Origin: Candidatus Omnitrophota bacterium
Lineage (GTDB): Bacteria > Omnitrophota > Gorgyraeia > Zapsychrales > JANLHA01
DNA: 32,000 nucleotides
NCBI GenBank assembly: GCA_963662715.1
Contig: OY759724.1
Span: 870,001-902,000 of the forward strand
Direction: 5' to 3'
Shown: positions 13,972 through 32,000 of the stretch, one piece after another
Layout of the letters: each line of letters begins with the position of its first letter
How positions within the stretch are numbered: position 1 is the first letter of the stretch
Made by a program: the position numbers and the translations under genes
Notes under the pieces: model-generated
Seen by the model: only the letters and a program-made list of their open reading frames with translations
The model's database searches: none
Told to the model about the DNA's origin: nothing

Positions 13972-13977
13972 CTTTTA

Positions 13978-14775
13978 CTAATTGATCTTAATAATTTTCT
14001 GAATCTCAGGCTCTCCATATTCCGCTCTCCCGGCATAGACGGCAAGATTCGGAAGGATTTGACATTCCCCAAGGCCGTGGGTATGCCCGCAAAGAACGGT
14101 CATTTCAGATTCAGGATGCTGCTCCATAACATCTCTGAAAACATCCCCTACTACCTTACAGGAAAAGAACGGCAGCCATTCCTCTCCCGAAGGCTGGCCG
14201 TTATACCGGCAAGCTTCTTTAAACGGCGGCACATGCGTCACCACAATGATATGGCGATGCTTTTTCAATGCCCTTGGAAGTGCTTTTTTAAAATGTTTAA
14301 CAGACTCATCCGCTAATTTTTGCATGGCTTCGAGGCGCTCATCTCGATTCCAAGTTTTCAGTTCCTTTATACAACGGAAATCATTTAGCTCAACCGAGCT
14401 GCCATCGAAATCGCCAAACCTTCCGTCAGCCCAGGAGTCATGACCGATCAAAGCGGTTTCTTCCGTCAAGCTGATACAATCAACCTTGTTGAGCCAGATC
14501 AATTTCTCGTATTTCTTCGTTAGATCAAAGACCGCTGAGCGGACAGCCATAATGGAGCCGGCATAAAAATCGTGATTCCCCATCACAAAATAGACAGGTC
14601 TCTCCACCGCCGACTTAATCCGTTCCAAAAAAGGAACAATGCTGTCTGCTTCTCCAATATCGCCTGAAATAAAAAAACAATCAACCGTTTCCTTCGACAA
14701 ACTTTTTAAAAAATCTTCGCGTTGATTGTATTTCAAGAAATTAAGATGTATATCCGTTAACCAAGCCGCTTTCAT
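13978..14775 (-). CDS. Calcineurin-like metallophosphoesterase
   Basis: Motif set DIHLN, GDIGE, GNHDFY, VTHVPP and CGHTHG. The ATG at 14775 (MKAAWLTDIHLNF), with AGGGGAAGG upstream, is preferred over the listed 14847 start, which would overlap abiEii. Confidence 0.8.
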   Translation of the reverse strand: MKAAWLTDIHLNFLKYNQREDFLKSLSKETVDCFFISGDIGEADSIVPFLERIKSAVERPVYFVMGNHDFYAGSIMAVRSAVFDLTKKYEKLIWLNKVDCISLTEETALIGHDSWADGRFGDFDGSSVELNDFRCIKELKTWNRDERLEAMQKLADESVKHFKKALPRALKKHRHIIVVTHVPPFKEACRYNGQPSGEEWLPFFSCKVVGDVFRDVMEQHPESEMTVLCGHTHGLGECQILPNLAVYAGRAEYGEPEIQKIIKIN

Positions 14776-14813
14776 TAAATTACAAACCTTCCCCTTTTTA
14801 TTTCCTATGGCAA

Positions 14814-15695
14814 TTATTGATCCGGCCTTAACTCCAACTTTCCCCAATACTCCTCCAGGAAAGAAAACGCCTCTTCCATCGACTTCTTCTCAACTCCACA
14901 ATCTTGTGCCATATCCGCATAAGTGCCCGCGAGTGTACCCGGCGGGATTTCCAGACTTTTGGGTATTTCATGTGTGCCACGTCGCGTAAATGTGGCTTCA
15001 ATGGCAGATACAACCGCGTCTTCCCCGGGAAGGCCCTGCTCGATCATTAAGATCAAATCGACCAAATCCCTTATTCGTGAGAAGGGACGCTTTTCTCGCG
15101 GATAAGAATAGGCGTGTATTTTTTCCGCAAAATGCTGCTCTACAGGCAAAATAGCGACACGTGCCGGTTCAATTCCGGCAAACCCCAACATATCTTCGCT
15201 GGTTTTCCATTCCTCTTTTGAAATAACTGCATCTCCAATACCGATATCGATATGAAATTTTGAAAAAACACGATTAGCCACCCTTGCCTCGACCGGATAA
15301 CGCCACCCGCCATAAACCGCTTGGTCAAATTCTCTCATCGGCAACCCGATAAAAAACTGAAACCAATCCGACAGATCTTTCTTGGCCTTTTCTTGGAGCA
15401 TTTCCCGAATCGTATTTTCATCCGGGGAATTCATGTGCGGTATTGAAAAATCGATATCTTTGGTTGTCCTCGCCAAATGATGAAAACGAAACTCGAGGGC
15501 ATACCCGCCCTTAAGAAGCCATTGCTGGTTTGGTTTATCAGGATCAAATAACCTGGCAAGAAACCGGTCAAATGTAACCTGCCTTCTCAAACGGTCCAAC
15601 GGAATCGCGCGCTTTCGGGCAATGTTTTTAAGCCTGTCTTCCAGCGCCTTTCTGAAATGAATTGCATTATCATATTTCTTAAAATTTTCAACCAT
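14814..15695 (-). CDS. AbiEii/AbiGii-family nucleotidyltransferase toxin (type IV TA)
   Basis: 293 aa. The pattern RRQVTFDRFLARL...LLKGGYALEFRF...RTTKDIDFS is typical of DUF1814/AbiEii. Its start overlaps the stop of the upstream AbiEi gene by 1 nt. Confidence 0.85.
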   Translation of the reverse strand: MVENFKKYDNAIHFRKALEDRLKNIARKRAIPLDRLRRQVTFDRFLARLFDPDKPNQQWLLKGGYALEFRFHHLARTTKDIDFSIPHMNSPDENTIREMLQEKAKKDLSDWFQFFIGLPMREFDQAVYGGWRYPVEARVANRVFSKFHIDIGIGDAVISKEEWKTSEDMLGFAGIEPARVAILPVEQHFAEKIHAYSYPREKRPFSRIRDLVDLILMIEQGLPGEDAVVSAIEATFTRRGTHEIPKSLEIPPGTLAGTYADMAQDCGVEKKSMEEAFSFLEEYWGKLELRPDQ

Positions 15696-16306
15696 CAGCC
15701 CTTCTCCTGTCTATGCTTGATTTGTTTTAGAACCATCGTAATTCTCTTCCGTGCTCTTTCAGACATATCAGCGCTGGCAATATCTATGATCTGAATAAGC
15801 CCGCGGTCACACGCTTGGCTGACAGCCTGCGTAAGATAATCCGCGCTGAGATTTGATTCAGCAGAATCGATAACGGTTTGAAGAGGCGTTGTCACAAAAA
15901 AGCCCTCTCTTTGCTCTTTAGCAATATCCGGGATGATTCCTTTATGAATAGCGCATCCTTTGGGCGCCTTTTTCCTGAATCCAGGAGGAACTGTAAAATG
16001 AATTTTACCCGGCATAACATCACTAAGTTCATGAATGCTTAGGGCTGAATCATGCGACATCACCGCTTGTGGCTGACCGCTGCGGTCCCTGCTCCAAAGT
16101 GACCACCGCACATAGTCCTCATCCGGAGAGTTTGGAAATTGGGCAAGCCGGAATACACCTCTGTCTATCTCAAGCCATTCCCCGTTTTGCCGGTAATGAC
16201 TTTGCATACGGTAAGAATAGCCCGCATTGATGGCCTGCTTTGCGGTAAAATACCCTTGCTGGGCTGAAGCCACTTCAAACAGTTTTTCTCGTTTGTTATT
16301 TTCCAT
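15695..16306 (-). CDS. AbiEi-family antitoxin / transcriptional autoregulator (type IV TA)
   Basis: MENNKREKLFEVASAQQGYFTAKQAINAGYSYRMQSHYRQNGEWLEIDRGVFRL is an AbiEi_4-type N-terminal wHTH. The ATG at 16306 is preferred to the TTG at 16315. It lies immediately upstream of abiEii. Confidence 0.8.
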   Translation of the reverse strand: MENNKREKLFEVASAQQGYFTAKQAINAGYSYRMQSHYRQNGEWLEIDRGVFRLAQFPNSPDEDYVRWSLWSRDRSGQPQAVMSHDSALSIHELSDVMPGKIHFTVPPGFRKKAPKGCAIHKGIIPDIAKEQREGFFVTTPLQTVIDSAESNLSADYLTQAVSQACDRGLIQIIDIASADMSERARKRITMVLKQIKHRQEKG

Positions 16307-16309
16307 AAT

Positions 16310-16387
16310 GCACAATCCTTACACTATATGTAATAAATATACAATAATATATTAATTTGTCAAGCACAATCATTACATAAAATGTAA
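16310..16387 (-). promoter_or_regulatory. abiE promoter flanked by two 24-bp operator-like repeats
   Basis: GCACAATCCTTACACTATATGTAA (16310-16333) and GCACAATCATTACATAAAATGTAA (16364-16387) match at 20 of 24 positions, and each contains TTACA-N5-TGTAA. Between them the minus strand reads TTGACA (16363-16358), a 16-nt spacer, then TATATT (16341-16336). Confidence 0.5.
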
Positions 16388-16493
16388 CATTTATGCGTCT
16401 GAGTCTCTCCCCCCGATATATGTGAACCCGTCAGGGGGCCCCAAAGGGGGGATTTCGGTTTTGGAGACCCTAAAATTACCGCCCTTCAGGTAT

Positions 16494-17615
16494 CTACCCT
16501 GAAGAATTTTTTACATAACTTATTGATGGGGATAGGTTTTCTGTGTGGACGGGTGGCCGATGTGCCACATGCGTGCCAACTTTTGACGGATTACCCAGGT
16601 TCAGGGCCTGGACTGCCCGCTGCTTGTGGCTGCAGCTGAGGTGAGAATACCGAAGCGTCATTTCCATGGTCTTATGGCCGAGCAGTTCTTTGACGGTCAT
16701 GAGATCCACCCCGGCCATGACAAGCTGCGAGGCAAACGTGTGCCTGAGATCGTGAAATCTGAAGTTCTCGATCCCCGCCTTCTTCAAGGCCGTGTAGAAT
16801 GACTTTTTGATATCATTAAACGGCTTGCCATTGTAGCTGGCGAAAACGTAGGGGCTTTCCGGATCCTTCCTGACGCGATACAGGATATCGCGCACTGCAT
16901 CATTGACCGGAATCTCGCGTTGCTCTCCGTTCTTCGTCTGCAGAATATGGATCAGCCCGCGGTTCAGATCAACGTTGTTCCATTTGAGATTAAAAATCTC
17001 GCCCTTACGCATGCCGGTATTGATCGCGAACTCCACGATATCTTTCAGGGGATCCTCGCAATGCTCCAGCAACCGCTGAATTTCTTCCTTCTCAAGAAAC
17101 CTTGTACGCTTATTATCAACAGGGAGAAACTTGAAACCTTGGACCGGATTGCGACTACTAAGATACTCCCATTCTTGAGCCTTGTTGAACATATTTCTCA
17201 GCACACCAAGATCCTTGTTCACCGTGTTGCCAACGATAGGTTTCCTGGTCCGAGGATTCTTATGCAGGAGCCGCCAATCGACAAACTTTTCAACATCTCG
17301 CTGAATGATCTCATGAAGATATTTATTACCGAAATATTTTATAAGGTGCCGAACATTGCTCCTCGATGATTTATGCCAGCCACGCAAAGTCCTCTGGCAA
17401 TGCCTCTCAAGATATTCTTGCGCGAAATCCTTAAACTTCATCTTCTTCTCGCGCTTGATATCGAGATGTTTGTTTTCGGCAACGAGGGTAAGCCGCTTTT
17501 GTAGAATCTTCTGGGCAATCGCCTTGTTGGGCGCGATCAATTCACGCTTCCTCACACCCTCTGCCGTGAAATAATCAATACCCCAAGTTTTTCCTCTTTT
17601 AAATACTCTGCCCAT
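16494..17615 (-). CDS. int: Tyrosine recombinase / phage-type integrase
   Basis: 373 aa. N-terminal SAM-like and core-binding region, then a catalytic domain with TGMRKGE (Arg), HDLRHTFAS (HxxR) and LGHKTMEMTLRYSHL (His, Tyr). Confidence 0.92.
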   Translation of the reverse strand: MGRVFKRGKTWGIDYFTAEGVRKRELIAPNKAIAQKILQKRLTLVAENKHLDIKREKKMKFKDFAQEYLERHCQRTLRGWHKSSRSNVRHLIKYFGNKYLHEIIQRDVEKFVDWRLLHKNPRTRKPIVGNTVNKDLGVLRNMFNKAQEWEYLSSRNPVQGFKFLPVDNKRTRFLEKEEIQRLLEHCEDPLKDIVEFAINTGMRKGEIFNLKWNNVDLNRGLIHILQTKNGEQREIPVNDAVRDILYRVRKDPESPYVFASYNGKPFNDIKKSFYTALKKAGIENFRFHDLRHTFASQLVMAGVDLMTVKELLGHKTMEMTLRYSHLSCSHKQRAVQALNLGNPSKVGTHVAHRPPVHTENLSPSISYVKNSSG

Positions 17616-18807: not shown

Positions 18808-20406
18808 TTAAACGCAGGTTAAATCCCCAATGTGATCAAGACCATTCATGGGCCGAACGATCCAAGTCTGAAATCTTTCTTTTGGATAATAAAAATATTC
18901 GTCACCCATTTTGGCTTCTTGAAGCAGTCCAATGCATTTCAGCTCAAGCAATATTCTTTTTGCTTGGTTATATCCTTTACCTATAAGCTTAGCGCATTCT
19001 TTACGGGACAATTGGCCTCTATTAGCAATCACATCCTCCGTTTGGAATAGATAAAGCACCTCTGCCCGATTTACTGGCATAGAAGACATTACAACCCTTC
19101 TCGCTAATTCGATTTCATGATCTGTTACGTGATCCCGTTTATGAATGATGGCCAGTGATCTTGTTAAAACTTTGATTTGCTGCAAAGCACGCCATGGCTC
19201 CTCAATTTGAATTTCCGCAGGTTCATAATAAGTGAAAGCATTCCCCTTCTTGCTTGTCCCACTGACCAATTCGGTTCGAATGACAGCCCTACCATGCCTA
19301 AGCAAATCAGCCAAAGAATTTATATCTTCTATCTGTTCTGGCGTCTCAGGTTTAAGTTCCATGATATCTTCTTGCACCTGCCATATATAGGCAGAAACTT
19401 TTCCCCTCAATTGTTTAAGTTTTCTATTCCGTTCGTCTCCAGACCAAGCGATCTTATAGCCTTCTGAAATTTGATCATTGGTAAGAGGCAATATTCTATA
19501 GAATAAAAACCTCGGACCTATCATGTTCATATAAACTTGATGTCCGGCCAACGCCACTGGAGTAATGCACCCTAAATGGCTAAAAGCGGCTTCATATTGT
19601 ATGCGTCCGCGCGTACCTGTAAACTTGGCAAAGACTTTGTCATATATGGCACACATATCACCCAAAATCTTCCTAATCGTATCTGCCTTTAAGGAAAATA
19701 ACGCCGTAAAATCCTTAACCACAAAACACTTCATATCAAGCTCTGCCAAAAGGTCTTGTGTTGCGAACCCATCTTCAGATACAAAACCGCTAATAAATGA
19801 ATTTTCTGTAAGTGTGTCCAAATGATAAACAAATGGAACGTCACGTATAGTGGTTACAGTGGCAGTTTTGTCGCTTGAAGGTGGCCCTACCAACATAAGC
19901 CAAAGCGGGGCCAAATTATATTTCATAGACACTTTCAAACTGATTGCTACAGCTATAGTCAATTCGATTATGTCATGACTGGCTGATGAAACATCGGCAA
20001 GTATTGCGTGTATTTCCAACAAACTTGTCTGCGTTTCCACTAGTCGTCTAATCTTTTCTTGCGCTTCTGCTTCTCTTTCTTTCTCATGTTTCTCTTTCAG
20101 GAAGGCTGCTCGTTTTTCTCCATAAATTTGCTCGAAGTGCTGCTTGGTAAACTTAAAAGAATTTTTGAAAATAACCTTGAAACTTTCCACTTCTGAGACT
20201 GCATACTCAATACATGCTATTCGCTGTATCAGGCCCGTTAACTTAATAATTCGATCTTGTGCATCTCTAAATGGCGACTTTTTTTGTGATATTCTCACCA
20301 GCTTCTGCAGATCCGCAGAAATGCTTTCTTTTTCTTCCTGCTCTGCAGTTGGACTCTTTTTAATCAATTCATCGAGCTCTTTTTTTGCATAATCTTCATT
20401 TGCCAT
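18808..20406 (-). CDS. Putative primase-associated P-loop NTPase/helicase with C-terminal wHTH
   Basis: 532 aa. Walker-A-like LVGPPSSDKT (Asp where GK[ST] normally has Gly), Walker-B-like CFVVKDFT, and a C-terminal RKECAKLIGKGYNQAKRILLELKCIGLL wHTH. Overlaps the upstream Toprim gene by 11 nt. Confidence 0.5.
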   Translation of the reverse strand: MANEDYAKKELDELIKKSPTAEQEEKESISADLQKLVRISQKKSPFRDAQDRIIKLTGLIQRIACIEYAVSEVESFKVIFKNSFKFTKQHFEQIYGEKRAAFLKEKHEKEREAEAQEKIRRLVETQTSLLEIHAILADVSSASHDIIELTIAVAISLKVSMKYNLAPLWLMLVGPPSSDKTATVTTIRDVPFVYHLDTLTENSFISGFVSEDGFATQDLLAELDMKCFVVKDFTALFSLKADTIRKILGDMCAIYDKVFAKFTGTRGRIQYEAAFSHLGCITPVALAGHQVYMNMIGPRFLFYRILPLTNDQISEGYKIAWSGDERNRKLKQLRGKVSAYIWQVQEDIMELKPETPEQIEDINSLADLLRHGRAVIRTELVSGTSKKGNAFTYYEPAEIQIEEPWRALQQIKVLTRSLAIIHKRDHVTDHEIELARRVVMSSMPVNRAEVLYLFQTEDVIANRGQLSRKECAKLIGKGYNQAKRILLELKCIGLLQEAKMGDEYFYYPKERFQTWIVRPMNGLDHIGDLTCV

Positions 20407-21034
20407 TAAAATAATCTCTCACATCTTTGCCGTGTGATAATACCTTTGCCAAATCAACATTTTTGACACTCAAAGCAATGTCGCATAACATCTGAGCGAC
20501 CTTTTTAGAGCATTCTCTTCCCGTCTGATCCGCATCATAAAGCAATACAACATGCTTTCCTTTAAACAAATGAACCCATTCCTTTAAAAAAGTAAGTGCT
20601 CCAGGCACACCCACCACAAATTCATAACCGTGCGCCTCCATGGACATCGTATCCCATTCCCCTTCGCAAATATAGACGACTGCCCCATAAGGAGCTGTTT
20701 TAAGGCACTCGACATTAAATAATCCCGCTCGACTGCCTTTCTTTGATATCGTGTCTCCCTCGGGAATCTTCCTTCGAAATCCTATTAAAAATCCATTTTC
20801 ATGAAAGATGGGAAGGGTATACGCATACCCATCCCAGCCAATTCTGTGTTTTCTTAAAGTATCAATGGGAATACCCCGATCGTCCGAAAAATTTTTTAGC
20901 TGAACGCGAGATAAGCAGGACTCATAACAATCAATTAACCCTCTATTAAACAGATCTTTCTTGATCATTGGCACAGGGGCATGGGGCTTATTCGCTTGAT
21001 ATCTTCTGATTTCTAAATAACTTTTATCGCTCAT
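20396..21034 (-). CDS. Toprim-domain protein (DnaG-type primase-like)
   Basis: 212 aa. VYICEGEWDTMSM (Toprim Glu) and VVLLYDADQTGRE (DxD) motifs. 4-nt overlap with the upstream gene. Confidence 0.7.
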   Translation of the reverse strand: MSDKSYLEIRRYQANKPHAPVPMIKKDLFNRGLIDCYESCLSRVQLKNFSDDRGIPIDTLRKHRIGWDGYAYTLPIFHENGFLIGFRRKIPEGDTISKKGSRAGLFNVECLKTAPYGAVVYICEGEWDTMSMEAHGYEFVVGVPGALTFLKEWVHLFKGKHVVLLYDADQTGRECSKKVAQMLCDIALSVKNVDLAKVLSHGKDVRDYFNGK

Positions 21035-22439: not shown

Positions 22440-23093
22440 CTAAGCCTTTGTCCCCTGCATGTCTAATGCTTTCTCGAAGGTCGACACTAATTGATTTATC
22501 GTACTCGGCTTAGATAAGCTGGCAAAACAACCTAGTTCTTTTGCAACCTCATTAGCTCGTTGTTTTCCAGAATAGATAATAATCGCTAACGATGGTTGGA
22601 TTCCCTTAACTTCATTTATGAAATTTCCCCACTCCCTTTCTATTCCTCGCAGATCAGTCACAAGCAAATCATACGGGTGTCTCTTAAGTCTTTTCAGGGC
22701 GTCTTGACTATTGCTGGATACGGTAACTGCATATCCTCGTTCAGTAACATGATTCCTGACAAAAGCCAAAATTTCTGGCTCATCATCTACCCATAGCAAC
22801 GTTGCTTTATGGGCGCCTCGCCATCCGGGATCAAATCCCAATTTCTTAAGAACAACGGCCAGGATTAATCCCACAATTAGGGGTGCCCAAGAACCTGATG
22901 AAGTCCCGATCCAACCACTGATTAAAAACGTTGCCCCTCCAAGAAAGAGCCCGATCTTTCTCGGCCTCGTTCCAACTACATAACCACACAACAAGACTCC
23001 TCCTGAAAAAACAAATAATAAGCTTATTATGGTCTGAATAAAACCCACAGCTATTATCCTCCCCATGAAAAAGCTTATCATACAAAGCGGCAC
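22440..23093 (-). CDS. Membrane-anchored stand-alone response-regulator receiver protein
   Basis: About three N-terminal hydrophobic helices (IIAVGFIQTIISLLFVF, LLCGYVVG..., WAPLIVGLILAVVL). These are followed by a complete REC domain: LLWVDDEPE, phospho-acceptor LLVTDL, IIIYSG and LSKP. No output domain. Confidence 0.7.
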   Translation of the reverse strand: MPLCMISFFMGRIIAVGFIQTIISLLFVFSGGVLLCGYVVGTRPRKIGLFLGGATFLISGWIGTSSGSWAPLIVGLILAVVLKKLGFDPGWRGAHKATLLWVDDEPEILAFVRNHVTERGYAVTVSSNSQDALKRLKRHPYDLLVTDLRGIEREWGNFINEVKGIQPSLAIIIYSGKQRANEVAKELGCFASLSKPSTINQLVSTFEKALDMQGTKA

Positions 23094-23175: not shown

Positions 23176-23385
23176 GTGCCTGATATCAATAAAGAAGTAG
23201 GAAAACGTATTTTGAAATACCGAAAAAAGCGTGGGCTTACTCAGGAAGGGTTAGCTTTTGAAGCGGATCTGCATCGTGCCTATATCGGTCAGATTGAACG
23301 TGGCGAGAAAAATATTGGAGTGCAAAACCTGCAGAAAATTGCCAAGGCCCTAAATATAAAGATTTCCAAACTTCTCGAAGATTAA
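23176..23385 (+). CDS. XRE-family HTH transcriptional regulator
   Basis: 69 aa, GTG start preceded by GGGGAGG. ILKYRKKRGLTQEGLAFEADLHRAYIGQIERGEKNIGVQNLQKIAKAL is a canonical HTH_3 domain. Confidence 0.85.
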   Translation: MPDINKEVGKRILKYRKKRGLTQEGLAFEADLHRAYIGQIERGEKNIGVQNLQKIAKALNIKISKLLED

Positions 23386-23427: not shown

Positions 23428-24048
23428 CTAAGCAGCGGTCAAAATCTTCTGGATCTCTTTTCTCCGTCGTTTAAATTCCTCTCTGGCCCATCTTTCTACA
23501 GCGATGTGTTCACTTATCATGTCTCCCATAAGCCAGCTTCTAAAGTTTTCACAACGACCATAATAGCAATCATCCGATTCCTTTGTCTTTCTTTTTAAAG
23601 CCCCCCAGGAATCATAATGCATTTTTTCTTTTATGTATCGCTGTTTATCTTTCGGTGTCATTAATTTGGTTTTCCATGCGACCTTTTCCATTCTTAGCTG
23701 ATCTTTTGCATCCTTTTCTAATTGCTTCTTGAGCCGAACCCATTCCAATGGCACTTTTTTCTTAATCCTGAAATGAGCTACCTCATGAAGGAGAGTAAGA
23801 AAATATTGTTCACCGGGCCTCAATTTTACCTTAATATCAGCAACATAGAACGCATCCCCACCAACAATACAGCCTAAATCTTTTAATCCCATATTGGGAT
23901 GTAAAAATATTCTATTCTTATCGAAACATGCCAAACCACACCAATTATTTTTTAATTTCTTCCATTCAACTGCAGGACAATCTTTTTTAAAATATGGCTT
24001 GGCAAATTCCTCTAAAACTTCAATGGTTGGCCTTAATGTCGATGCCAT
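23428..24048 (-). CDS. SprT-like zinc metallopeptidase (HExxH)
   Basis: 206 aa. VEWKKLKNNWCGLACFDKNRIFLHPNM followed by TLLHEVAHF (HExxH) follows the SprT-like domain layout. The start is 3 nt after the stop of the upstream nuclease gene. Confidence 0.6.
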   Translation of the reverse strand: MASTLRPTIEVLEEFAKPYFKKDCPAVEWKKLKNNWCGLACFDKNRIFLHPNMGLKDLGCIVGGDAFYVADIKVKLRPGEQYFLTLLHEVAHFRIKKKVPLEWVRLKKQLEKDAKDQLRMEKVAWKTKLMTPKDKQRYIKEKMHYDSWGALKRKTKESDDCYYGRCENFRSWLMGDMISEHIAVERWAREEFKRRRKEIQKILTAA

Positions 24049-24051
24049 ATT

Positions 24052-25254
24052 CTATCTTTTTAAAAAATCATATTGTTTACCATAAGCGGAATAAAAACCA
24101 TCAGGTACCGGCCAACAAAGGCAAATACCCAACGATCGAAGATATTCAACTATCCACAATAGTTCTTCGGGGGGCGGCGTTTGTACTACCAAACACAGTT
24201 TGGCGCCCTGCGCTGGTTTAGAATAAAGGAATCGATACTCAAAAAGCTGGGCAATCCCACCGCGTACTTGCGACAAGAAATTAGAACCATTCGTGCTTTT
24301 AACTTCAAAGATCCAACTCACACCATCAACCACAGCAAACAGGTCCACCTTCTGATTCTCTGAAACGCTATGCTTGTGAGCGCCTATAACACGACTTAAT
24401 CTATTCAACAGATCTTGGTGAGCATTTAACGACTTTTCTAAAGCCGCTATTCTATTGCCTTCATCATATATCTTTCCGGAAGCTTGCATCTGTGTTAAAG
24501 CTTTTTGACGAAAAGGGGTCTTCTTTTTAACTCTTGAGAATGCTTTTTGATTATATTCTTCTTGTCTTTTTTGCAACCGACTCTCAATTTTATTGAATTT
24601 CTCGGGGTCTTCTATTTGAAATCCAGTTTGCGGCCATTTTTTAAAACCCAGAATTCCTTTCACTTCAGATAACCGGATACCATGATCAGGAGGAACCGCA
24701 TAATCAGGAATAACCGATCTTTTAAAAATCCATCGTTTATTTCCCCTCAATTGTTGTCCTTTCGGGATCCAAATCGTTTCATTTAATACCGTACCACTGG
24801 CAAAAACAGCCTTTGCTCCTTTAAAATTCTCTGAGGGGTGCTTCCCAACTTGATAAAAGAGAACACGATCACCATCTCTGATGATCTCATTTCTACGTTG
24901 TTTCTTCTCGTGAAACCAAATATACAGGGCTGACAAATCTCGATTGGGAGAAGGCCAATATTGCTCAAGCCAATATTGGCAAGCAACCTTTTTCTCTATT
25001 CCTAAGCGAGGTATCTTGTACCGGATAACTAAGTTCGCTCCGTCTCCTTTTGGGGGTTGCTCCCGTATCTCATCTCCATCATTCATTGAACTACGCATCA
25101 CCGAACAACAAACAGGCATTCTATGATTTCCTGGATAGCCCCCGACTTTTCTGTGAAGATCCCCAGCTCTAATATCAATATATGGGAATCCTTTTTCAGT
25201 GGCGTCTCTTAATTCTTCAACCAAACTTTTATAAAAAACTTCCCTTTTTCTCAA
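24052..25254 (-). CDS. Three-domain protein: unknown N-domain, PUA-like (EVE/ASCH-type) middle domain, C-terminal PD-(D/E)xK nuclease
   Basis: 400 aa, TTG start. The middle IIRDGDRVLFYQVGKHP...GAKAVFASGTV resembles EVE/ASCH beta-barrels. The C-terminus VDLFAVVDGVSWIFEVKSTNG...GGIAQLFEY carries a D...E-x-K...Q nuclease core. Confidence 0.55.
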   Translation of the reverse strand: MRKREVFYKSLVEELRDATEKGFPYIDIRAGDLHRKVGGYPGNHRMPVCCSVMRSSMNDGDEIREQPPKGDGANLVIRYKIPRLGIEKKVACQYWLEQYWPSPNRDLSALYIWFHEKKQRRNEIIRDGDRVLFYQVGKHPSENFKGAKAVFASGTVLNETIWIPKGQQLRGNKRWIFKRSVIPDYAVPPDHGIRLSEVKGILGFKKWPQTGFQIEDPEKFNKIESRLQKRQEEYNQKAFSRVKKKTPFRQKALTQMQASGKIYDEGNRIAALEKSLNAHQDLLNRLSRVIGAHKHSVSENQKVDLFAVVDGVSWIFEVKSTNGSNFLSQVRGGIAQLFEYRFLYSKPAQGAKLCLVVQTPPPEELLWIVEYLRSLGICLCWPVPDGFYSAYGKQYDFLKR

Positions 25255-25281
25255 CTTGGTCGATTCCTTTTGACTTCCTAT

Positions 25282-25419
25282 TTATTTTTTCCCTTTTGTT
25301 GTACTTGTCCCTGTCGTAGGTTTTGGCGTTGGAGCTGGCTTCTTATTCTTTCCTGCCGTATGAAACTCACCTTTTGATGGTTTCGGTGTCGGCTTAGGCT
25401 TAGATTTATCAACTGTCAC
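25282..25419 (-). CDS. Unannotated micro-ORF 2 (45 aa), Pro/Thr/Lys-rich
   Basis: GTG at 25419 preceded by AAGGAAGGGG. Translation is VTVDKSKPKPTPKPSKGEFHTAGKNKKPAPTPKPTTGTSTTKGKK*. It is a paralog of micro-ORF 1. Confidence 0.45.
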   Translation of the reverse strand: MTVDKSKPKPTPKPSKGEFHTAGKNKKPAPTPKPTTGTSTTKGKK

Positions 25420-25507
25420 TTTAAACCCCTTCCTTAAGGATAATATTCTTATAAAATATAACGCTATTAATAATGCAAAAAAGGCTCTCGCTTCTTCATT
25501 TGAATTC

Positions 25508-25642
25508 TTACTTATTCTTACCCTTGGTCGTACTTATCCCTGATGTTGGCTTAGGTGTATTTATAGGTCTTATTGTAGCCCCAGCTGTCGTTCCTTGCCC
25601 TTTGGTTGGCTTTGGTGTGGGGCGCGGTTTCTGATCGCTCAC
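25508..25642 (-). CDS. Unannotated micro-ORF 1 (44 aa), Pro/Thr/Lys-rich
   Basis: The GTG at 25642 overlaps the TAG of the upstream gene by 1 nt and is preceded by AAGGAGG. Translation is VSDQKPRPTPKPTKGQGTTAGATIRPINTPKPTSGISTTKGKNK*. Confidence 0.45.
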   Translation of the reverse strand: MSDQKPRPTPKPTKGQGTTAGATIRPINTPKPTSGISTTKGKNK

Positions 25643-26205
25643 TAAATACCTCCTTTCTGTAAAGCATAAAAACTCAAAAAAACGATTAACGCCAGAAGAA
25701 ATCCCAAAGAAAATAAAAACATCCTGGCAGATTTTTTGAGTTCGGCTCCCTTATGCTCATTAATTTGAAAGTTATTACGGTAAACTTCCCAAAAATGTGA
25801 GGTTAAATATCTTTTAAAAGAAGATTCCTCTTCTTGGATCATTTGTTCATGGAAGACATCTTCTTCAGAGATCGATTTAAAATCGCTTCTTGTTTTCATA
25901 GATTGGAATGCATAAAATAATGCCACAAATGAAAAAAGCAAGGACCCCAGATAAAGGGGGACAAGAGTATTTATCCAAATCGGGGATTTAATATCTGTTA
26001 CAATTAACCCTCCCAGGCCAAAAACTAAAGTCATATATACTCCAATTAATCCCAGAAAATTATTGGCTTTTTCATCTAGATTCACCTGTCGATCTGATTC
26101 TTGTTGAACCAGATTATAGGACAAAGAATAGACAGTCTCAATAATCCGAGGATCTTTGATTCTTAGCCGCTCGATAATTTGTTCGATAGAAAGTTTAGGA
26201 GTCAT
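25642..26205 (-). CDS. Three-TM membrane protein (Pycsar-effector/SLATT-like layout, tentative)
   Basis: 187 aa. A soluble helical N-terminus ends in DEKANNFLGLIG, followed by TM1 and TM2, a charged linker, then C-terminal TM3 (MFLFSLGFLLALIVFLSFYAL). ATGA overlap with the upstream gene. Confidence 0.55.
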   Translation of the reverse strand: MTPKLSIEQIIERLRIKDPRIIETVYSLSYNLVQQESDRQVNLDEKANNFLGLIGVYMTLVFGLGGLIVTDIKSPIWINTLVPLYLGSLLFSFVALFYAFQSMKTRSDFKSISEEDVFHEQMIQEEESSFKRYLTSHFWEVYRNNFQINEHKGAELKKSARMFLFSLGFLLALIVFLSFYALQKGGI

Positions 26206-26627
26206 TTCTTTATTTCAATCTTAAAATTTGGGATTTGATCTTCTTTACAGAAAAATTTAATACCCACACCATCCATCGCATTATATCTCTCATATTGCAC
26301 AGTTTTTCGGGGCGTAATCTTAACATCTGTCGCATCACCGTATCTCTCTTCCAGAATAAATATAATAGTCCCATCCTTATCAATCGTTTTCTTTACTTTG
26401 TAAGGGAAATTCTTACTCTTCAAAACACGTCCGTCAGTGGAAACTAAAGCATAGGAATAATCTACGTAAGAAGAGACCACCTGTATAAGCCCATAAATCA
26501 ACAAAACAGATGCGGCAACAATACCAACAATCTTGACCCATAACTGTTGCTGCACCGACTCTGGCAGAAAACCATAAACCGTATTATAAACCGAAATCAG
26601 CACTAACAACGCTATCCACATCCACAT
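26202..26627 (-). CDS. 2-TM protein with beta-rich C-terminal domain
   Basis: 141 aa. Two N-terminal TM helices (WIALLVLISVYNTVYGF, IVGIVAASVLLIYGLIQVV) are followed by a strand-like soluble domain of about 80 aa. It starts 21 nt after the HerA stop. Confidence 0.55.
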   Translation of the reverse strand: MWMWIALLVLISVYNTVYGFLPESVQQQLWVKIVGIVAASVLLIYGLIQVVSSYVDYSYALVSTDGRVLKSKNFPYKVKKTIDKDGTIIFILEERYGDATDVKITPRKTVQYERYNAMDGVGIKFFCKEDQIPNFKIEIKK

Positions 26628-26648
26628 AAATCACCAGCTTTATATATT

Positions 26649-28511
26649 CTATTGGGAATTTTTATTCGCAATGTTTTTAAATTCTAAAGTATGACTCCTC
26701 GGTTTTTTAGCTGTCGGAAGCTCCGTAATTTTCAATTTTAAAGGCATTGGAGTAGCTATCCCGCTAAAAATACATACACCAACCGGCAAAGCTGGTATCG
26801 ATTCCTCAGTTATCCTATCAATATAAGAAACAGCGTTTCCAATAGTAGCAAGATCTTTTTGATTAATAAGTTGATGAATAAAATAATTATGGGCTTGAGA
26901 GATTATTGTATCTGATATGTCATTCGGTCTTTGACTTGCGATGGTAATAAAAACGCCAAACTTGCGACCTTCCTTGATAATCTCTTCAAAAGTTTCAAGA
27001 CGGTAATCTTTCCATTCCTCTGTTTCTCTAAAAGAAGTTTTCGATAAAATGTTATGAGCTTCGTCAATAATGATATTGAGAGATTTTTTATTATCTTCTT
27101 TTTTATGGTTGCTGTAGATATTTTTCGCCAGCAACAAGGGAACGGTTTTTTTCATGTCCAAATTAACATCATGTAAATTTACCACGACACAGTTATATTT
27201 ATCCCAAAATTTAGGAGAAGACTCGACTTTAAAGGTTCTCTCAATGCTTGTTTGCTTGGCTTTAAATCGATTAATAACTGGGTACACATGGTCATTCTGG
27301 ACTTTGTATCTAAACACATCCTCTATAAGCTGCAAATGAAGAAAAATATAGAACAAAGATAATTCAGATATCTTGCCTATCTTTGAATTATCAATAGAAT
27401 TTGTCAGCTTATAGATATTCGTTTCTTCTATAGCCTGGGGACTACCATTAAAATATGTTTCCTCTCCGAGTTTCTTAAACGTCTCGTATTTGCTATTAAA
27501 TTCAATATCACTTTTTATATTAATATCTGTCGTGTCATCAATAAACTTCTCCAGGACTTCTTCCATATAATCCAGCAATTTTAAAGCAACATCCTTATTC
27601 GCCATCTTAAGGATATCCTTGATTTTGTTCTGAACAATTCCTTTTACATAGGCAGCAAAATTATCCTTGGATTTTGACTTTTTATAGAACCTAAGCGTTC
27701 GCTTCAAAAATGGCTTTTGTGTCTTCTCAGTTGCCTCCATCAAGATCGCTAAGGTTTCGATATCGAACAACTCATCAAAAAGCATTGGAATTTTATCGCC
27801 CTTATCATCCTGAGTCCGAAGATTATAAGGTTTCTTATTCTTTGTTACACAATCTGGCTTAATATATTCTCCATTAAAATCAAGAATGAGAAATTTACAG
27901 TTTGTTTGAAACCCCTCATCTTTACCACATAGGTCGAAAAATCCTTGGTACAAAGCCGCAAGAGTATTCGATTTACCACTCCCGGTATTTCCAAAAATTG
28001 CTATATGACTATTAAAAATACTGTCTACGGGCAATTCGACAGGGATCTCTTCAATTTCAGTCTTTGCTATTTGGACATGAAGAGGAGAGTCGTCTTTCGT
28101 TAAATTATGAATATTGTGTATCTTTTGCTCTGTTAAAATGAATGCTTCATTACCAATCAGCGGCAGCTCCTTTATTCCCCCAATAAATTTGCCATTTAAA
28201 TCCACATATCCCACCAAGCTCAACGTCAAAAATCGTTCATTCCTATTAACTCTTTTATATTCATCATTCATCTCTTCTTTTATATCTATTTGTTCCTTCA
28301 ATTTTTCCCCATCGGATTTCCCTATAATACTAAGAAAACCCTTTTTGATTTCTACATAGCTCCCGACAGAAACATTCTTAATTATGTCGCCATCAAAAAG
28401 AAGGTCAGAAGAGTTTTTATTTTTATCTACTTTAATAAAAACTTTCCTTCCTTCAATCTCTGAAACTTCTCCTATCCGGAGAATTGCATCTTTTAAAAGG
28501 CTATTGTTCAT
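26649..28511 (-). CDS. HerA-like (FtsK/HerA, DUF87) ATPase of a SIR2-HerA defence pair
   Basis: 620 aa. N-terminal HAS-barrel-like IGEVSEIEGRKVFIKV, Walker A IAIFGNTGSGKSNT and Walker B LNIIIDEAHN. Overlaps the SIR2 gene by 11 nt. Confidence 0.85.
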   Translation of the reverse strand: MNNSLLKDAILRIGEVSEIEGRKVFIKVDKNKNSSDLLFDGDIIKNVSVGSYVEIKKGFLSIIGKSDGEKLKEQIDIKEEMNDEYKRVNRNERFLTLSLVGYVDLNGKFIGGIKELPLIGNEAFILTEQKIHNIHNLTKDDSPLHVQIAKTEIEEIPVELPVDSIFNSHIAIFGNTGSGKSNTLAALYQGFFDLCGKDEGFQTNCKFLILDFNGEYIKPDCVTKNKKPYNLRTQDDKGDKIPMLFDELFDIETLAILMEATEKTQKPFLKRTLRFYKKSKSKDNFAAYVKGIVQNKIKDILKMANKDVALKLLDYMEEVLEKFIDDTTDINIKSDIEFNSKYETFKKLGEETYFNGSPQAIEETNIYKLTNSIDNSKIGKISELSLFYIFLHLQLIEDVFRYKVQNDHVYPVINRFKAKQTSIERTFKVESSPKFWDKYNCVVVNLHDVNLDMKKTVPLLLAKNIYSNHKKEDNKKSLNIIIDEAHNILSKTSFRETEEWKDYRLETFEEIIKEGRKFGVFITIASQRPNDISDTIISQAHNYFIHQLINQKDLATIGNAVSYIDRITEESIPALPVGVCIFSGIATPMPLKLKITELPTAKKPRSHTLEFKNIANKNSQ

Positions 28512-29589
28512 CTTTTATTAGCTTCGTCTTCTCCTGCTTTTGCTTGTATTCTGGTGGGAGCATTTTTTTTATAATTAAATTGAACTTGTCGAAATTGATT
28601 TCTTCGGCTTCTGAATACACAATGTCTACATTATTAGCTGCAGAAAATTTTTCTTTATATCCTGCCAACTCATCCCTTTTATAACAAAAAACAACAACCA
28701 TTAAAGTCGGATTTCTCAATGCCCTGGCTGTAATCTCATATATATGTTCGTCCGCGAAAGAAAAACCTTCTGCTATTAAGAGGGTATTCTCCTTTTCTAA
28801 TTCATTTGCATATATCCTCAATAAGTCGTAGTAAGTCTGATTCAAAATACATTCTTTAAATTTCTCTTCTCTTGGCAAAACTATTGAGAAATTATTGTTA
28901 AATTGCTTTATTTTTTCTCCCGTCTCAGTATTTGATATTTTTTTAAGCTCTTCTACTAAAACGTCCAACTGTCGAATAGAAAAGAATATTTTGTTATCCT
29001 TAGATTCCCAGCCTAACGATCCATGAATTTTTATAAGATTTATTGATGGAACTTGAACTTGATAGTTATATAAATTCCCATTGTTATATGTCGAGTTAAA
29101 GAACTCGGAGGGAGAAAACAAGAACGAGCCTGAAATCAAAGGCCTTCTATTAAAACCATCATTGAGCCTGGCTGAGATTTCTATTTCTTCAAATGCCTTC
29201 TCAACAAAAAGATCATAATTAGTTGAGAAAATAGTGGCTTGCCTCGGCAAAATATTAGTTTTTCTTTTAAATAATATTTCTGAGATGTTTGTTAAAAAAG
29301 ACTTATAAGTCATCGTAGTCTGATTAATATTCTCATCTGAATTCTGCCTCATCCTTGACGTGACTTCTACGATGGGCTTAAGAAATTCAAACGTCATCCT
29401 TTCTGCTTCTTCATTCTTTCCCTCTTCCCTTCTACTCCTTATTTCATTCTCAACATTCCCCAAGGGTGCGAGTGCAGGATGAGAACAGCCTGAGCCTATT
29501 AAAAAATTCAAATTGACCGACTGGATTGCCTTATATAATCTGAAGAGAAATTCATCTTTTTTCTTATCGATATCCCATATATTTGCCAT
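28501..29589 (-). CDS. SIR2-family (SIR2_2-type) NADase-like protein
   Basis: 362 aa. NFLIGSGCS (GAGxS-type loop), IFSTNYD (catalytic Asn) and IKIHGS (catalytic His). GGAGG SD before the ATG. Confidence 0.8.
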   Translation of the reverse strand: MANIWDIDKKKDEFLFRLYKAIQSVNLNFLIGSGCSHPALAPLGNVENEIRSRREEGKNEEAERMTFEFLKPIVEVTSRMRQNSDENINQTTMTYKSFLTNISEILFKRKTNILPRQATIFSTNYDLFVEKAFEEIEISARLNDGFNRRPLISGSFLFSPSEFFNSTYNNGNLYNYQVQVPSINLIKIHGSLGWESKDNKIFFSIRQLDVLVEELKKISNTETGEKIKQFNNNFSIVLPREEKFKECILNQTYYDLLRIYANELEKENTLLIAEGFSFADEHIYEITARALRNPTLMVVVFCYKRDELAGYKEKFSAANNVDIVYSEAEEINFDKFNLIIKKMLPPEYKQKQEKTKLIKDEQ

Positions 29590-29599
29590 ATTACCTCCA

Positions 29600-29681
29600 T
29601 TCTAAAAATCTAAGGTCTTCGGTACACACCATACACTGCATTATATTCCCACCTTCTCATACAAATGCTTCTAAAAATCTA
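29600..29681. repeat. 13-bp direct repeat in the SIR2 operon upstream region
   Basis: TTCTAAAAATCTA occurs at 29600-29612 and 29669-29681, upstream (minus-strand sense) of the SIR2 start. Confidence 0.6.
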
Positions 29682-29735
29682 TGAAGGTGTTGCGGATATT
29701 GTCAACGCCGCCCGTGATTTCCTCTGCATCACCGG

Positions 29736-30818
29736 TCACAGATCATCACTTTTGGGACAGGTTATACAATCCATCCCCCTGGAATAATAATGACATTCAT
29801 TACAGCGCGTACATTCTCTTATATTCATCTTCTCACCACAAAAATATTTGTCTGCAAACTTGCAATCTGCAATTAATGCTCGCCCTAATGAAAAAGTAAT
29901 GTTTTTATACTGCGCTGTTTTTAATCTTTCTAAATCCAACACTTTACCTGCAACATTCCAAAATATATGCTTAAATTTCTTGGCTAAAGGAATTACTTCA
30001 TCTAACAAATAAGCATGTTTAAAATTCTCAGCCGGATAAATAAAATGCTTGTTAATATTATAGAATCCGCTTGAAATACTTAACATATCAATATCCCATT
30101 CACAAATTCTTCCCAATAAATCAGTCTTATATCCCTCAGCAGCTAAATCCTCAATCCCGTCAAAACGATTCACCCGCAAATCTAAGACGATATCGGGTAC
30201 TTGATCACGAATTCTATCAACAATATCATGCATAAATTTTAATCGATCATAACAATTATCATCATTTCTTGTGTTAAGAACCCTATTAATCATTTGTGCC
30301 AGAAAATAACCATGTGCAGCATGGATTTGGATCACCTTGAAACCAGCTTCTCTTGCAAGAACCGCCCCAGCGACAAACAGGTCTTTAATCTCCTCGAACT
30401 CTTTCTCTGAGCAAGAAGAAATTCTTCTTTGGGCCAATTTAATGAACATCTCTGGATTCTTATTCACCCATTGTTTTTGTTGCTTAATTCTTGGGTCATG
30501 CAAAGACAGCTGTATTCCTGGCAACGATCCGTTCTTCTCTATCGCTTCTGCCAATTTCTTATACTGCACATCTGACGAAATTATTGCTGTATTATCATTT
30601 GACCGAAATCTTGAATGAACAGCGACATTCCCAACATAACTAATTCCTAAACGTGATCCAGACCTTCGCTCATGGAAGTCAATTAACCTTTGTGTTGGTA
30701 TGCCACCTCTAGCAAAACCTGTATTTATGGGTGCGAGGAATAAATGAGAAGGCACCCTTAATCTTCTTATTTCTAAGGGAGCAAACAAATATTTAATTTC
30801 TGAACTAGCACAAAACAT
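29736..30818 (-). CDS. Old-Yellow-Enzyme-like FMN oxidoreductase with C-terminal Cys cluster
   Basis: 360 aa. LFAPLEIRRLRVPSHLFLAPINTGF, LPGIQLSLHD, VIQIHAAHGYFLAQMIN and GRALIADCKFADKY match the OYE/FadH N-domain layout. The C-terminus is CTRCNECHYYSRGMDCITCP. Confidence 0.7.
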   Translation of the reverse strand: MFCASSEIKYLFAPLEIRRLRVPSHLFLAPINTGFARGGIPTQRLIDFHERRSGSRLGISYVGNVAVHSRFRSNDNTAIISSDVQYKKLAEAIEKNGSLPGIQLSLHDPRIKQQKQWVNKNPEMFIKLAQRRISSCSEKEFEEIKDLFVAGAVLAREAGFKVIQIHAAHGYFLAQMINRVLNTRNDDNCYDRLKFMHDIVDRIRDQVPDIVLDLRVNRFDGIEDLAAEGYKTDLLGRICEWDIDMLSISSGFYNINKHFIYPAENFKHAYLLDEVIPLAKKFKHIFWNVAGKVLDLERLKTAQYKNITFSLGRALIADCKFADKYFCGEKMNIRECTRCNECHYYSRGMDCITCPKSDDL

Positions 30819-30843
30819 AAGAAATCAATTTAATAGATACATA

Positions 30844-31293
30844 TTAGCATCCGAACTCACTCTTTAAATGCTTTAAGAACTTCTGCGTCGCAGGAAAAAC
30901 CTTCAACCCCTGTGTATCATCAAGCCTCAACCATCGCCATTCAACAAGCTCAGAAGAATTAAACTCTAATGTAGTGTCCTCAGCAAGATACACCACATAG
31001 AAATAAACCTTACCCTCTCCAAAGTCATAATCCGTAGTAATCGCCAAGCTCATCTTTTGATTAGACAGGTCTAATCCGACTTCCTCTTTTACTTCTCGCA
31101 TAACCGTAGACATTGGGCTCTTATCAATACCCTTTACTCCCCCCCCAGGGGGTTGCCAATGATTTGGAAATCGTCGGGTTTTGACTAGTAGTATTTCTTT
31201 TCTACTATTTAAAATTCCTATTACAGCCACATCACGTCTGGGATTGCGCTCTAACTCCCTCGTCACATCTGAATCATTCTTATCAAAAACCAT
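30844..31293 (-). CDS. NUDIX hydrolase
   Basis: 149 aa. Nudix box GGGVKGIDKSPMSTVMREVKEEVGL (REUxEExGU intact). The start codon directly abuts the stop of the upstream gene. Confidence 0.85.
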   Translation of the reverse strand: MVFDKNDSDVTRELERNPRRDVAVIGILNSRKEILLVKTRRFPNHWQPPGGGVKGIDKSPMSTVMREVKEEVGLDLSNQKMSLAITTDYDFGEGKVYFYVVYLAEDTTLEFNSSELVEWRWLRLDDTQGLKVFPATQKFLKHLKSEFGC

Positions 31294-32000
31294 TTATTCC
31301 CCACCTGTTTTAAATAAAACAAAAGTAATTATTAGCCCTGCAATGGACGCTAAAGATCCTGAGATATCTAGTGTTTTCTCAACAATTAAAAACTTATCTC
31401 CCTCCAGGACAAAGGGAGCTACACCATTTACAATCAACAAGAAAACAAAAAGCATCCCCAAAATCTTTAAATACTTTTCTATCCTAATAACTTTCGAAAT
31501 AATGTTTCGTAAGGGACGAGGCAAGGATTTCCAACATTTTGCTTCCAAGGAATGATAATCTACCGGATCAGCATGAAATTGACTAGGATAAGGCCACGAC
31601 ATGGTTGCATCACCATGCTGCCCAACATAAGGTGAAGAAGCCTTAGCTTTTAGTCGAAAAAAACAGCCTTTGACAAAAGAGATTCCTTTTTCAAAATGAA
31701 TTGGACGAGCGCTTAAATTTGTCATTGTAATGCCTAAACGTCCTCTAAAGCCCGGATCGGCCGCTGTGCATACAGGTGTTAGCCCCATGGAAAACAATGA
31801 CCCCTTGGAAAATAATAGCAAGAAGTGTTCCTGATCAAGATTGACTTTTTCCATTGTTACTATAGTAAGCGTTTCAAAAGGATTGATCGTATGCGAAGCT
31901 TGCTTTCTTTGACTAGTCTGCTTCTTTTCATAATCATAAGTATACGATATATCCCCAACTCGGAATTCATAACAACAGCCATCAAGTTGTTTGTTGTCAA
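31294..32000 (-). CDS. dCTP deaminase/dUTPase-fold protein with C-terminal 2-TM extension (5' end outside the window)
   Basis: The frame stays open upstream of the listed ATG to the window edge (DNKQLDGCCYEFRVGDISYTYDYEKK...INPFETLTIVTMEKVNLDQEHFLLLFSKGSLFSMGL...ADPGFRGRLGITMTNLSARPIHFEKGISF). This follows the Dcd/Dut beta-barrel pattern (SSxxRxGL, DPGxxG, xxN). The C-terminus adds two hydrophobic helices (ILGMLFVFLLIVNGVAPFVL, SLASIAGLIITFVLF). Confidence 0.65.
   Translation of the reverse strand, partial: DNKQLDGCCYEFRVGDISYTYDYEKKQTSQRKQASHTINPFETLTIVTMEKVNLDQEHFLLLFSKGSLFSMGLTPVCTAADPGFRGRLGITMTNLSARPIHFEKGISFVKGCFFRLKAKASSPYVGQHGDATMSWPYPSQFHADPVDYHSLEAKCWKSLPRPLRNIISKVIRIEKYLKILGMLFVFLLIVNGVAPFVLEGDKFLIVEKTLDISGSLASIAGLIITFVLFKTGGE

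Follow-up and report, generated by a model that had tools for sequence, protein, structure and literature searches.

A SIR2-HerA defence pair followed by probably independent cargo in a compact gene array of a Candidatus Omnitrophota genome

We analysed a 32,000-nucleotide (nt) stretch of DNA from a Candidatus Omnitrophota genome (hereafter the window), in which eight same-strand genes, headed by the SIR2 and HerA genes of the published SIR2-HerA anti-phage system (Garb et al., bioRxiv 10.1101/2021.12.14.472415), form a compact array. Our analysis indicates that this array is likely a mosaic within a defence/mobile island of low guanine plus cytosine (GC) content, where a self-sufficient SIR2-HerA pair is followed by independent cargo: a membrane module made up of a protein with two transmembrane segments (2-TM), a protein with three (3-TM) and small repeat peptides; a nuclease with PUA-like and PD-(D/E)xK domains; and an orphan HExxH gene. 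We favour this reading because the downstream families mostly occur elsewhere without SIR2-HerA, and SIR2-HerA occurs elsewhere without the downstream families. Shared transcription of the eight genes would then reflect island packing and not a single machine. A first-pass annotation of the same DNA had instead proposed one combined system joining depletion of nicotinamide adenine dinucleotide (NAD+) with membrane, nuclease and protease components; these components do not co-occur in the 80 related loci described below, and the downstream genes occur elsewhere as separate modules.

The SIR2-HerA pair and the array behind it

SIR2, the first gene of the array (28501-29589, minus strand, 362 amino acids (aa)), matched the PADLOC SIR2 model PDLC04080 over profile positions 13-343 of 347 (E = 9.1e-104) and Pfam SIR2_2 (E = 6e-12), with a further match to NCBIfam SIR2_antiphage that lies under the model cut-off (E = 1e-24). 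HerA (26649-28511, minus strand, 620 aa) matched PADLOC HerA PDLC04097 over positions 3-614 of 618 (E = 1.3e-201) and Pfam DUF87, again with an NCBIfam anti-phage HerA match under the cut-off, and its sequence was similar to HerA chains of known structure (e.g. 8wiv_A, E = 3.5e-28, and 9c1m_M, E = 5.4e-28). The catalytic motifs of SIR2 (GSGCS at residues 32-36, TNYD at 123-126 and HGS at 189-191) and the Walker A (GNTGSGKS, 174-181) and Walker B (IIIDEAH, 480-486) motifs of HerA are all present. The first-pass assignment of these two genes to SIR2-HerA thus stands, and judged by full-length matches and motifs the pair is a canonical member of the published two-gene family, for which structures (PMC11472057, PMC11514289) and Escherichia coli types I-III (PMC13434337) have been described. 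In this family a HerA-SIR2 complex triggered by infection depletes NAD+ and infection is aborted, and the pair in the window would be expected to act in the same way.

Among 185,579 species-representative genomes, a scan identified 80 loci with HerA relatives, which we retrieved with up to 10 kb of flanking sequence per side. HerA in these loci was 46-72% identical to that of the window (72% being the best), and SIR2 lay within the fetched locus in 78 of the 80. None of the six proteins encoded downstream of HerA in the window had a homologue in the 80 loci by tblastn. A hidden Markov model (HMM) search covering all 19,590 stop-to-stop segments of the loci likewise gave no match to the 2-TM protein, to the 400-aa nuclease or to the 206-aa HExxH protein, and found one distant 3-TM-family protein, in locus L033, placed 5.4 kb beyond HerA with three genes between. 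When open reading frames (ORFs) up to 4 kb downstream of HerA were clustered (at least 1.5 kb of downstream sequence was available in 66 loci), the largest shared family came from four loci, and no conserved third gene beside SIR2-HerA emerged across the 80. That none of the genes behind HerA recurs save this one distant relative speaks against the earlier suggestion that the usual two-gene unit is expanded here, as the downstream genes are not conserved with SIR2-HerA.

As a control for spacing, we annotated same-strand genes found at -28 to +42 nt of HerA in other loci. They encode HsdR at -4 nt, a serine recombinase at +7 nt, a DUF6883 protein at 0 nt, an overlapping WYL-WCX regulator, a DUF2779/Cas4-like protein at +34 nt and a PRTase-CE protein at +42 nt. 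Elsewhere, therefore, HerA is followed by unrelated island genes, and tight same-strand packing behind it is common. This calls for caution, as terminator-free packing behind a known defence pair is frequent in islands and does not define a new multi-gene system.

The ORF list gives eight genes for the array, six of them downstream of HerA, and no additional ORF fits, so that the nine genes first counted (seven after HerA) must be corrected. The junctions themselves had been read correctly, all matching the ORF coordinates. SIR2 and HerA overlap by 11 nt; 21 nt separate HerA from the 2-TM gene (26202-26627, 141 aa), which shares an ATGA overlap, read directly from the sequence, with the 3-TM gene (25642-26205, 187 aa). 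This gene overlaps by 1 nt a GTG-started 44-aa ORF (25508-25642), which is followed after 88 nt by its GTG-started 45-aa paralogue (25282-25419), after 27 nt by the TTG-started 400-aa gene (24052-25254) and after a further 3 nt by the 206-aa gene (23428-24048). All lie on the minus strand, and both small ORFs are where the first-pass annotation had placed them.

Transcription signals were sought with weak consensus scans. Between positions 22000 and 31000 there were 9 terminator-like sites (5.2 +/- 2.0 expected), and the three on the minus strand within the array all fall inside coding sequence. The intergenic RNA folds tested were indistinguishable from those of shuffled sequence, with no structured spacer. 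No intrinsic terminator was convincing, in keeping with the earlier remark that the stretch shows no terminator-like hairpin with a T-run. Upstream of SIR2-HerA, a putative promoter/operator region (29600..29705, minus strand) is defined by consensus matches only. It includes the best promoter-like site, TTGACA-18-TAGATT at 29705-29676, and a perfect 13-nt direct repeat, TTCTAAAAATCTA, at 29600-29612 and 29669-29681 (spaced 69 nt), so that promoter-like repeats upstream of SIR2, as first reported, do exist at the level of consensus matches. Promoter-like matches across the region (25, against 27.6 +/- 5.6 expected) are at chance level. One copy of TTCTAAAAATCTA overlaps the -10-like hexamer and the other sits just upstream of the SIR2 Shine-Dalgarno sequence; the repeat is a possible operator. 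Because the layout is compact and same-stranded and terminators were not found, co-transcription of the array by read-through from the SIR2 promoter is plausible.

The membrane module and its genomic contexts

A hydropathy scan agreed with the transmembrane counts of two and three that the first-pass annotation had given for the two membrane proteins. For the 3-TM protein, a word-indexed search recovered only two homologues. When 1.84 billion representative proteins were searched with a profile, 417 matched at E<=1e-3 and 158 at E<=1e-10, which puts the family at 417 clusters or more at 50% identity. Of 61 members sampled, none matched any Pfam family at 1e-3, nor did the PycTM and 8xMP models match any of the 61 at that threshold. 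The similarities to known defence proteins that we did see are sub-threshold: 15.4-18 bits to 8xMP against a cut-off of 30, and a PADLOC PycTM match at E 0.037 in a 3-TM homologue only. No nucleotide cyclase partner was present among the window genes scanned, and a literature search on '8xMP' returned nothing relevant. The AlphaFold2 (AF2) model of the 3-TM protein (predicted local distance difference test (pLDDT) 95.2) consists of long helices at residues 19-71, 75-103 and 127-183, and a fold search with it gave only generic helical-bundle matches in PDB and BFVD. PDB sequence searches with the 3-TM profile and with the 2-TM protein were empty or spurious. Conserved polar residues of the family (R39, D44, K46, R106, D116, R132, N149, E150 and K152) lie in predicted cytosolic segments.

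The 3-TM gene is accompanied by the small ORFs. In the window, the Shine-Dalgarno sequence of the 44-aa ORF, AAAGGAGG, sits inside the last codons of the 3-TM gene, while the 45-aa ORF has its own GTG start and Shine-Dalgarno sequence, AAGGAAGGGG. Neither metagenome nor viral contigs yielded a match to a close 3-TM alignment; the productive metagenome scan used a 13-sequence alignment. To the closest 3-TM locus (L090), a metagenome scan and a viral-contig scan added nine further distinct loci (L091-L106). Downstream of the L090 homologue, which is 81% identical to the window protein, lies a 42-aa homologue of the 44-aa ORF that again starts with GTG and overlaps the 3-TM gene by 1 nt. The two peptides are 67% identical, and the differences between their genes are mainly synonymous, at least 10 of them at third positions. 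Peptide ORFs in L090, L091, L094, L095 and L097 were matched by the 45-aa peptide in tblastn, and a P/T/K-rich peptide carrying repeats of the type PxPTPKPSxGxxxTxG follows the 3-TM gene in the 8 closest of 10 distinct loci. The peptide is a separate small ORF, in varying frames, in L090, L091, L093 (two copies), L094/L095, L096 and L098, and a fused C-terminal tail in L097 and L106, as well as in L092, where an in-frame stop precedes it; it recurs even where the 3-TM homologue is only 30-40% identical. Of the 150 best 3-TM representatives, 48 extend at the C-terminus by 20 aa or more, and 27 of these tails are rich in P/T/K/S/G. The synonymous changes in frame, and the recurrence of the peptide as a small ORF or fused tail after 3-TM homologues, argue that the small ORFs are genuine and belong with the 3-TM gene, the 45-aa ORF being a second copy. 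A frameshift or readthrough joining the 3-TM gene to the 44-aa ORF was considered and rejected, as the small ORFs have their own starts and Shine-Dalgarno sequences and their frames differ between loci. In L092 (3313-4284), the 3-TM homologue has an in-frame stop (LQS*KGGYMSDKK...) beyond which the frame continues into a P/T/S-rich repeat tail of ~110 aa; this could be readthrough, recoding, sequencing error or recent fission.

The 2-TM protein, with hydropathy-predicted segments at ~3-22 and 27-55 and a beta-rich C-terminal part, matched no family in Pfam, NCBIfam or PADLOC and had no homologue in viral contigs. The sole homologue found (47% identity) is encoded immediately upstream of a 3-TM homologue in L091/L100; L091 is the only other 3-TM locus with a 2-TM partner, the gene being missing from the rest of those examined. 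By this shared position, the 2-TM protein is an occasional partner of the 3-TM gene.

What lies upstream of the module differs from locus to locus: a DSR1-like gene with a GTGA overlap (L090); a CHAT-AAA_16-TPR STAND protein gene 21 nt away (L096); a Ski2/HamB-like (Hachiman-like) helicase gene (L106); E2-E1-JAB, patatin and Schlafen/HATPase_c_4 genes (L091); a pVip-like radical-SAM gene (L098); and an IetA-like AAA ATPase gene (L103). Defence-type genes were found upstream in 7 of 10 loci (nine retrieved plus the window), directly adjacent in 4. Homologues of SIR2, HerA or DSR1 were detected by tblastn in none of these retrieved loci except L090. The DSR1-like gene there (L090:3-2859) matched PADLOC Dsr1 over the C-terminal 640 positions (E = 1.8e-55), its N-terminus being cut by the contig end; L090 is a second instance of the 3-TM module behind a SIR2-type NADase system. 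In L091 (2964-10710), the E2-E1-JAB fusion, patatin and Schlafen/HATPase_c_4-wHTH genes make up a CBASS-type neighbourhood followed by the 2-TM/3-TM/peptide trio. Plasmids held no homologue of the 3-TM protein or of two distant family members.

Since the 3-TM module is found behind varied genes other than SIR2-HerA, it appears to be a portable resident of defence islands, often placed at the 3' end of other systems. We propose tentatively, as a possibility well short of an even chance, that the 3-TM protein and peptide, sometimes with the 2-TM protein, constitute an undescribed, widespread membrane defence module that habitually takes the 3'-terminal place in operons of other defence systems (SIR2-HerA, DSR1, Hachiman-like, CHAT-STAND and CBASS-type), acting either as an autonomous abortive-infection/exclusion unit or as a shared second-line effector. 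Within the mosaic reading, the mechanism of this module is the weakest step: the 3-TM protein would oligomerize in the inner membrane; the repeat peptide would be an integral part of the unit, fused or split off and translationally coupled; and the module would act as an autonomous membrane-perturbing or exclusion unit. An uncurated 3-TM family with a mini-peptide that undergoes fission and fusion is a concrete candidate for functional screening and the main lead of this analysis.

The 400-aa nuclease, the 206-aa protein and the surrounding island

The 400-aa protein had no sequence-level match to Pfam, PADLOC or PDB families. Its AF2 model (pLDDT 90.3) begins with a promiscuous domain of ~80 aa; a PUA-like (EVE/ASCH/YTH-like) domain follows at ~92-215, and a helical linker joins this to a PD-(D/E)xK domain at ~294-400. 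In Foldseek searches, the middle domain matched 2p5d (E = 5e-5), 1wmm (PH1033), 1zce (Atu2648), the ASCH protein 5y6c and YTH structures, at the level of fold only, and the C-terminal domain matched XisH (2inb/2okf), Card1/Cdn1, AF1548 and PaqCI. Fourteen proteins match the C-terminal ~77% of the 400-aa protein, and residues D304, E317 and K319 (D...ExK) do not vary across 14 homologues. In naming PUA-like and PD-(D/E)xK domains the first-pass annotation is upheld, because the model carries both the reader and the nuclease fold and the D...ExK residues are invariant. Combinations of a PUA-superfamily reader with a PD-(D/E)xK or HNH nuclease constitute modification-dependent restriction endonucleases (PMC6765204, PMC7897488), and EVE domains have been surveyed (PMC7641849). 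The architecture matches, and no methyltransferase is annotated among the neighbours of the gene in the window; we regard the 400-aa protein as a candidate solitary modification-dependent (type IV-like) nuclease, in which the PUA-like pocket would read a modified base and the D304/E317/K319 site would cut DNA.

Residues 1-82 (window 25009-25254) form a small alpha/beta domain with the motif GDLHRKVGGYPG..HRMPVCCxVM..PPKGxGAxLxIxYxLPR. It had no Pfam match in the 400-aa protein, and ~20 further proteins share this ~80-aa domain alone, fused to unrelated partners that include HEAT repeats, PdxA, DUF4145 and PF26468/PF21818 proteins.

Nine distinct contexts of the 400-aa family were available, the window included, and 7 of the 8 others are without HerA. 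They comprise MmeI-type and DISARM-like genes (L001); type ISP restriction genes with M78/DUF4411 (L003); type I restriction-modification (R-M) genes with M78/DUF4411 (L008); PLD-SNF2 and MmeI-like R-M genes (L004); an integrase (L006); a stand-alone copy on a mobile element, with intergenic spaces of ~450-520 nt (L107); HNH, Vsr and Dcm genes (L110); a position directly after a HerA fragment (L109); and, in the window, the position behind SIR2-HerA and the membrane module. In plasmids, all matches to the 400-aa protein were partial, to its N-terminal or nuclease domain, and in viral contigs only nuclease-domain relatives turned up.

The 206-aa protein was retrieved only as itself among 5.8 billion protein clusters, had no Pfam, NCBIfam or PADLOC match at E<=0.1, and was matched by no PDB sequence or plasmid. 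It does contain the HExxH motif on which its earlier description as a SprT-like protease was built (HEVAH, residues 88-92), in a sequence context reminiscent of minimal zincins; the SprT-like part of that description found no family or PDB-sequence match and is a motif-level guess. We therefore treat the protein as an orphan and a possible minimal zincin. A pair of the nuclease with a small gene was also considered and rejected: in L001 and L004 the 400-aa homologues are followed by genes of ~180 aa, but these do not match the 206-aa protein.

Core genes (PAS-LuxR, Dak1/Dak2, GPx and CarB) occupy positions 1 to ~12,000 of the window, where GC content is 43-56%; it drops to 33-41% from ~17.5 kb to the window end. 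From ~12.7 kb onward the genes include AbiEi/AbiEii, DUF6088, a tyrosine integrase, a Toprim primase, a membrane-anchored receiver domain and a C-protein-like helix-turn-helix (HTH) gene, and the integrase, primase, Abi genes and HTH around the array place it in a defence/mobile-element island. The minus-strand genes at 13606-17615 (a DUF6088 protein, a metallophosphoesterase, the AbiEii/AbiEi toxin-antitoxin pair and the tyrosine integrase), together with the Toprim primase (20396-21034) and a DUF5659 protein further on, look like the backbone of an integrative element carrying defence cargo.

Adjoining the array on its 206-aa side is a 69-aa XRE/C-protein-like HTH gene (23176..23385, plus strand; Pfam HTH_3, E = 8e-17; PADLOC Control_protein, E = 1.7e-21). 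Lying outside the array and oriented convergently to the 206-aa gene, it has no nuclease gene downstream on its own strand and is not conserved beside 400-aa homologues. Despite the good HMM match, we rejected a C-protein-controlled restriction system, as the HTH gene is neither upstream of nor co-oriented with the nuclease gene. Next to it, a 217-aa protein (22440-23093, minus strand) combines hydrophobic segments over its first ~90 residues with a response-regulator receiver domain and resembles the C-terminus of PADLOC PD-T4-6 (E = 4.8e-8). Upstream of SIR2 (29736-31854, minus strand) are an OYE-like flavin reductase gene and then a NUDIX hydrolase gene abutting that of a DCD-like protein, which has a partial dCTP-deaminase-like (DCD) domain and two C-terminal TM segments; the NUDIX and DCD-like proteins may be another nucleotide-targeting defence pair.

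Alternative readings and comparison with known systems

Several observations weigh against the mosaic reading. The eight co-directional genes, spaced from -11 to +88 nt with no detectable terminator, leave room for a single transcript and for interplay between the products. GC content at third codon positions (GC3) is uniform over the array genes (0.30-0.40), so that composition shows no separate origins; uniform GC3 is uninformative either way, and we dropped base composition as an argument for a mosaic origin. Translational coupling through the GTGA overlap links the closest 3-TM homologue to DSR1, which is another SIR2 NADase, and in L109 (2-2758) a 549-aa homologue of the 400-aa protein (51% identical) begins 48 nt after a C-terminal HerA fragment. 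Sampling of neighbourhoods for the 3-TM and 400-aa families is small, at ~9-11 distinct contexts each. Lastly, operon-linked systems that are evolutionarily separate can synergize, as in Liu-DS6, which joins Pycsar with type IV Thoeris (PMC13069673).

The alternative that draws most on these points is partial coupling, in which the 3-TM protein and peptide, the 400-aa nuclease, or both, would be facultative add-ons that attach preferentially to the 3' end of SIR2-type NADase systems, serving as a boost or backup, for example as a second-line membrane effector analogous to Csx28, the accessory pore of Cas13b (bioRxiv 10.1101/2021.11.02.466367). The 3-TM module stands directly behind SIR2-HerA in the window and behind DSR1 in L090, and both modules generally follow other defence genes closely on their 3' side. 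The adjacency in L109 belongs to a distant branch of both protein trees: HerA there is 54% identical to other HerAs against 45% to that of the window, and closer relatives of the 400-aa protein are not beside HerA. The two HerA/400-aa adjacencies therefore arose independently; we take L109 as a lead and not as proof of linkage. The 549-aa homologue in L109 has a different N-terminal region, and an integrase is encoded nearby. Against coupling, none of the 80 HerA loci has either module adjacent, the partners of the 3-TM module are mostly not SIR2 proteins (CHAT-STAND, Hachiman-like, CBASS-type, radical-SAM and IetA-like), the upstream systems already own effectors, and one extra case per family is within chance co-location in defence islands. 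On balance we consider partial coupling unlikely, if worth keeping in view.

That all eight genes form one integrated defence system under one promoter, uniting NAD+ depletion with membrane, nuclease and protease functions, appears very improbable. The compact co-directional layout, the overlapping or abutting stop and start codons, the lack of terminators, and the position of the best promoter-like site and repeats upstream of SIR2 would all fit such a system, but the downstream genes do not accompany SIR2-HerA in related loci, the membrane and nuclease modules are each found in other contexts, the 206-aa gene is without any homologue, and equally tight neighbours of HerA elsewhere are unrelated. 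Least credible of all is that the small ORFs and/or membrane genes are chance ORFs in a spacer between two real units: the protein collection has no exact match to the 44-aa or 45-aa ORF or to the 2-TM protein in its 141-aa form, and both small ORFs are GTG-started and of low complexity, but this is outweighed by the mostly synonymous divergence from the 67%-identical L090 peptide, the recurrence of the peptide behind distant 3-TM homologues in different frames or fused, the strong Shine-Dalgarno sequences, the hundreds of 3-TM family members and pLDDT-95 model, and the 47%-identical 2-TM homologue in the same position.

As in other SIR2-HerA systems, SIR2 is followed by an overlapping HerA with intact motifs, and the neighbours are variable, as expected for a two-gene unit; the core is identical in kind, and the extra same-strand genes lie outside the conserved architecture of the family. 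The position of the 3-TM protein and peptide behind the DSR1-like gene of L090 parallels their position behind the SIR2 system of the window, whereas DSR1 is a single-gene system without HerA and its adjacency to the 3-TM gene was seen once. Like Liu-DS6, the array packs separate systems into one operon-like unit; synergy in Liu-DS6 is experimental, whereas the combination in the window is known from its genes alone and is not conserved.

Among membrane effectors, the 3-TM protein is comparable to PycTM of Pycsar and to Csx28 in being a small multi-helix membrane protein beside defence genes, with polar residues predicted to be cytosolic. It differs from them in that neither a cyclase nor a Cas13 accompanies it, its fold is unmatched in PDB and BFVD, and its sequence matches are all sub-threshold; its P/T/K repeat peptide ('PxPxxPSxG'), fused or split, is without counterpart in the families compared. 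The 400-aa protein resembles modification-dependent restriction enzymes in placing a PUA-like domain before a PD-(D/E)xK domain within a single gene, and in residing in restriction-rich islands; relative to the known enzymes, it adds the ~80-aa N-terminal domain (GDLHRKVGGYPG...HRMPVCC) and a long helical linker. As a new sequence family that combines PUA, PD-(D/E)xK and a promiscuous N-terminal domain, it would extend the catalogue of candidate modification-dependent restriction enzymes.

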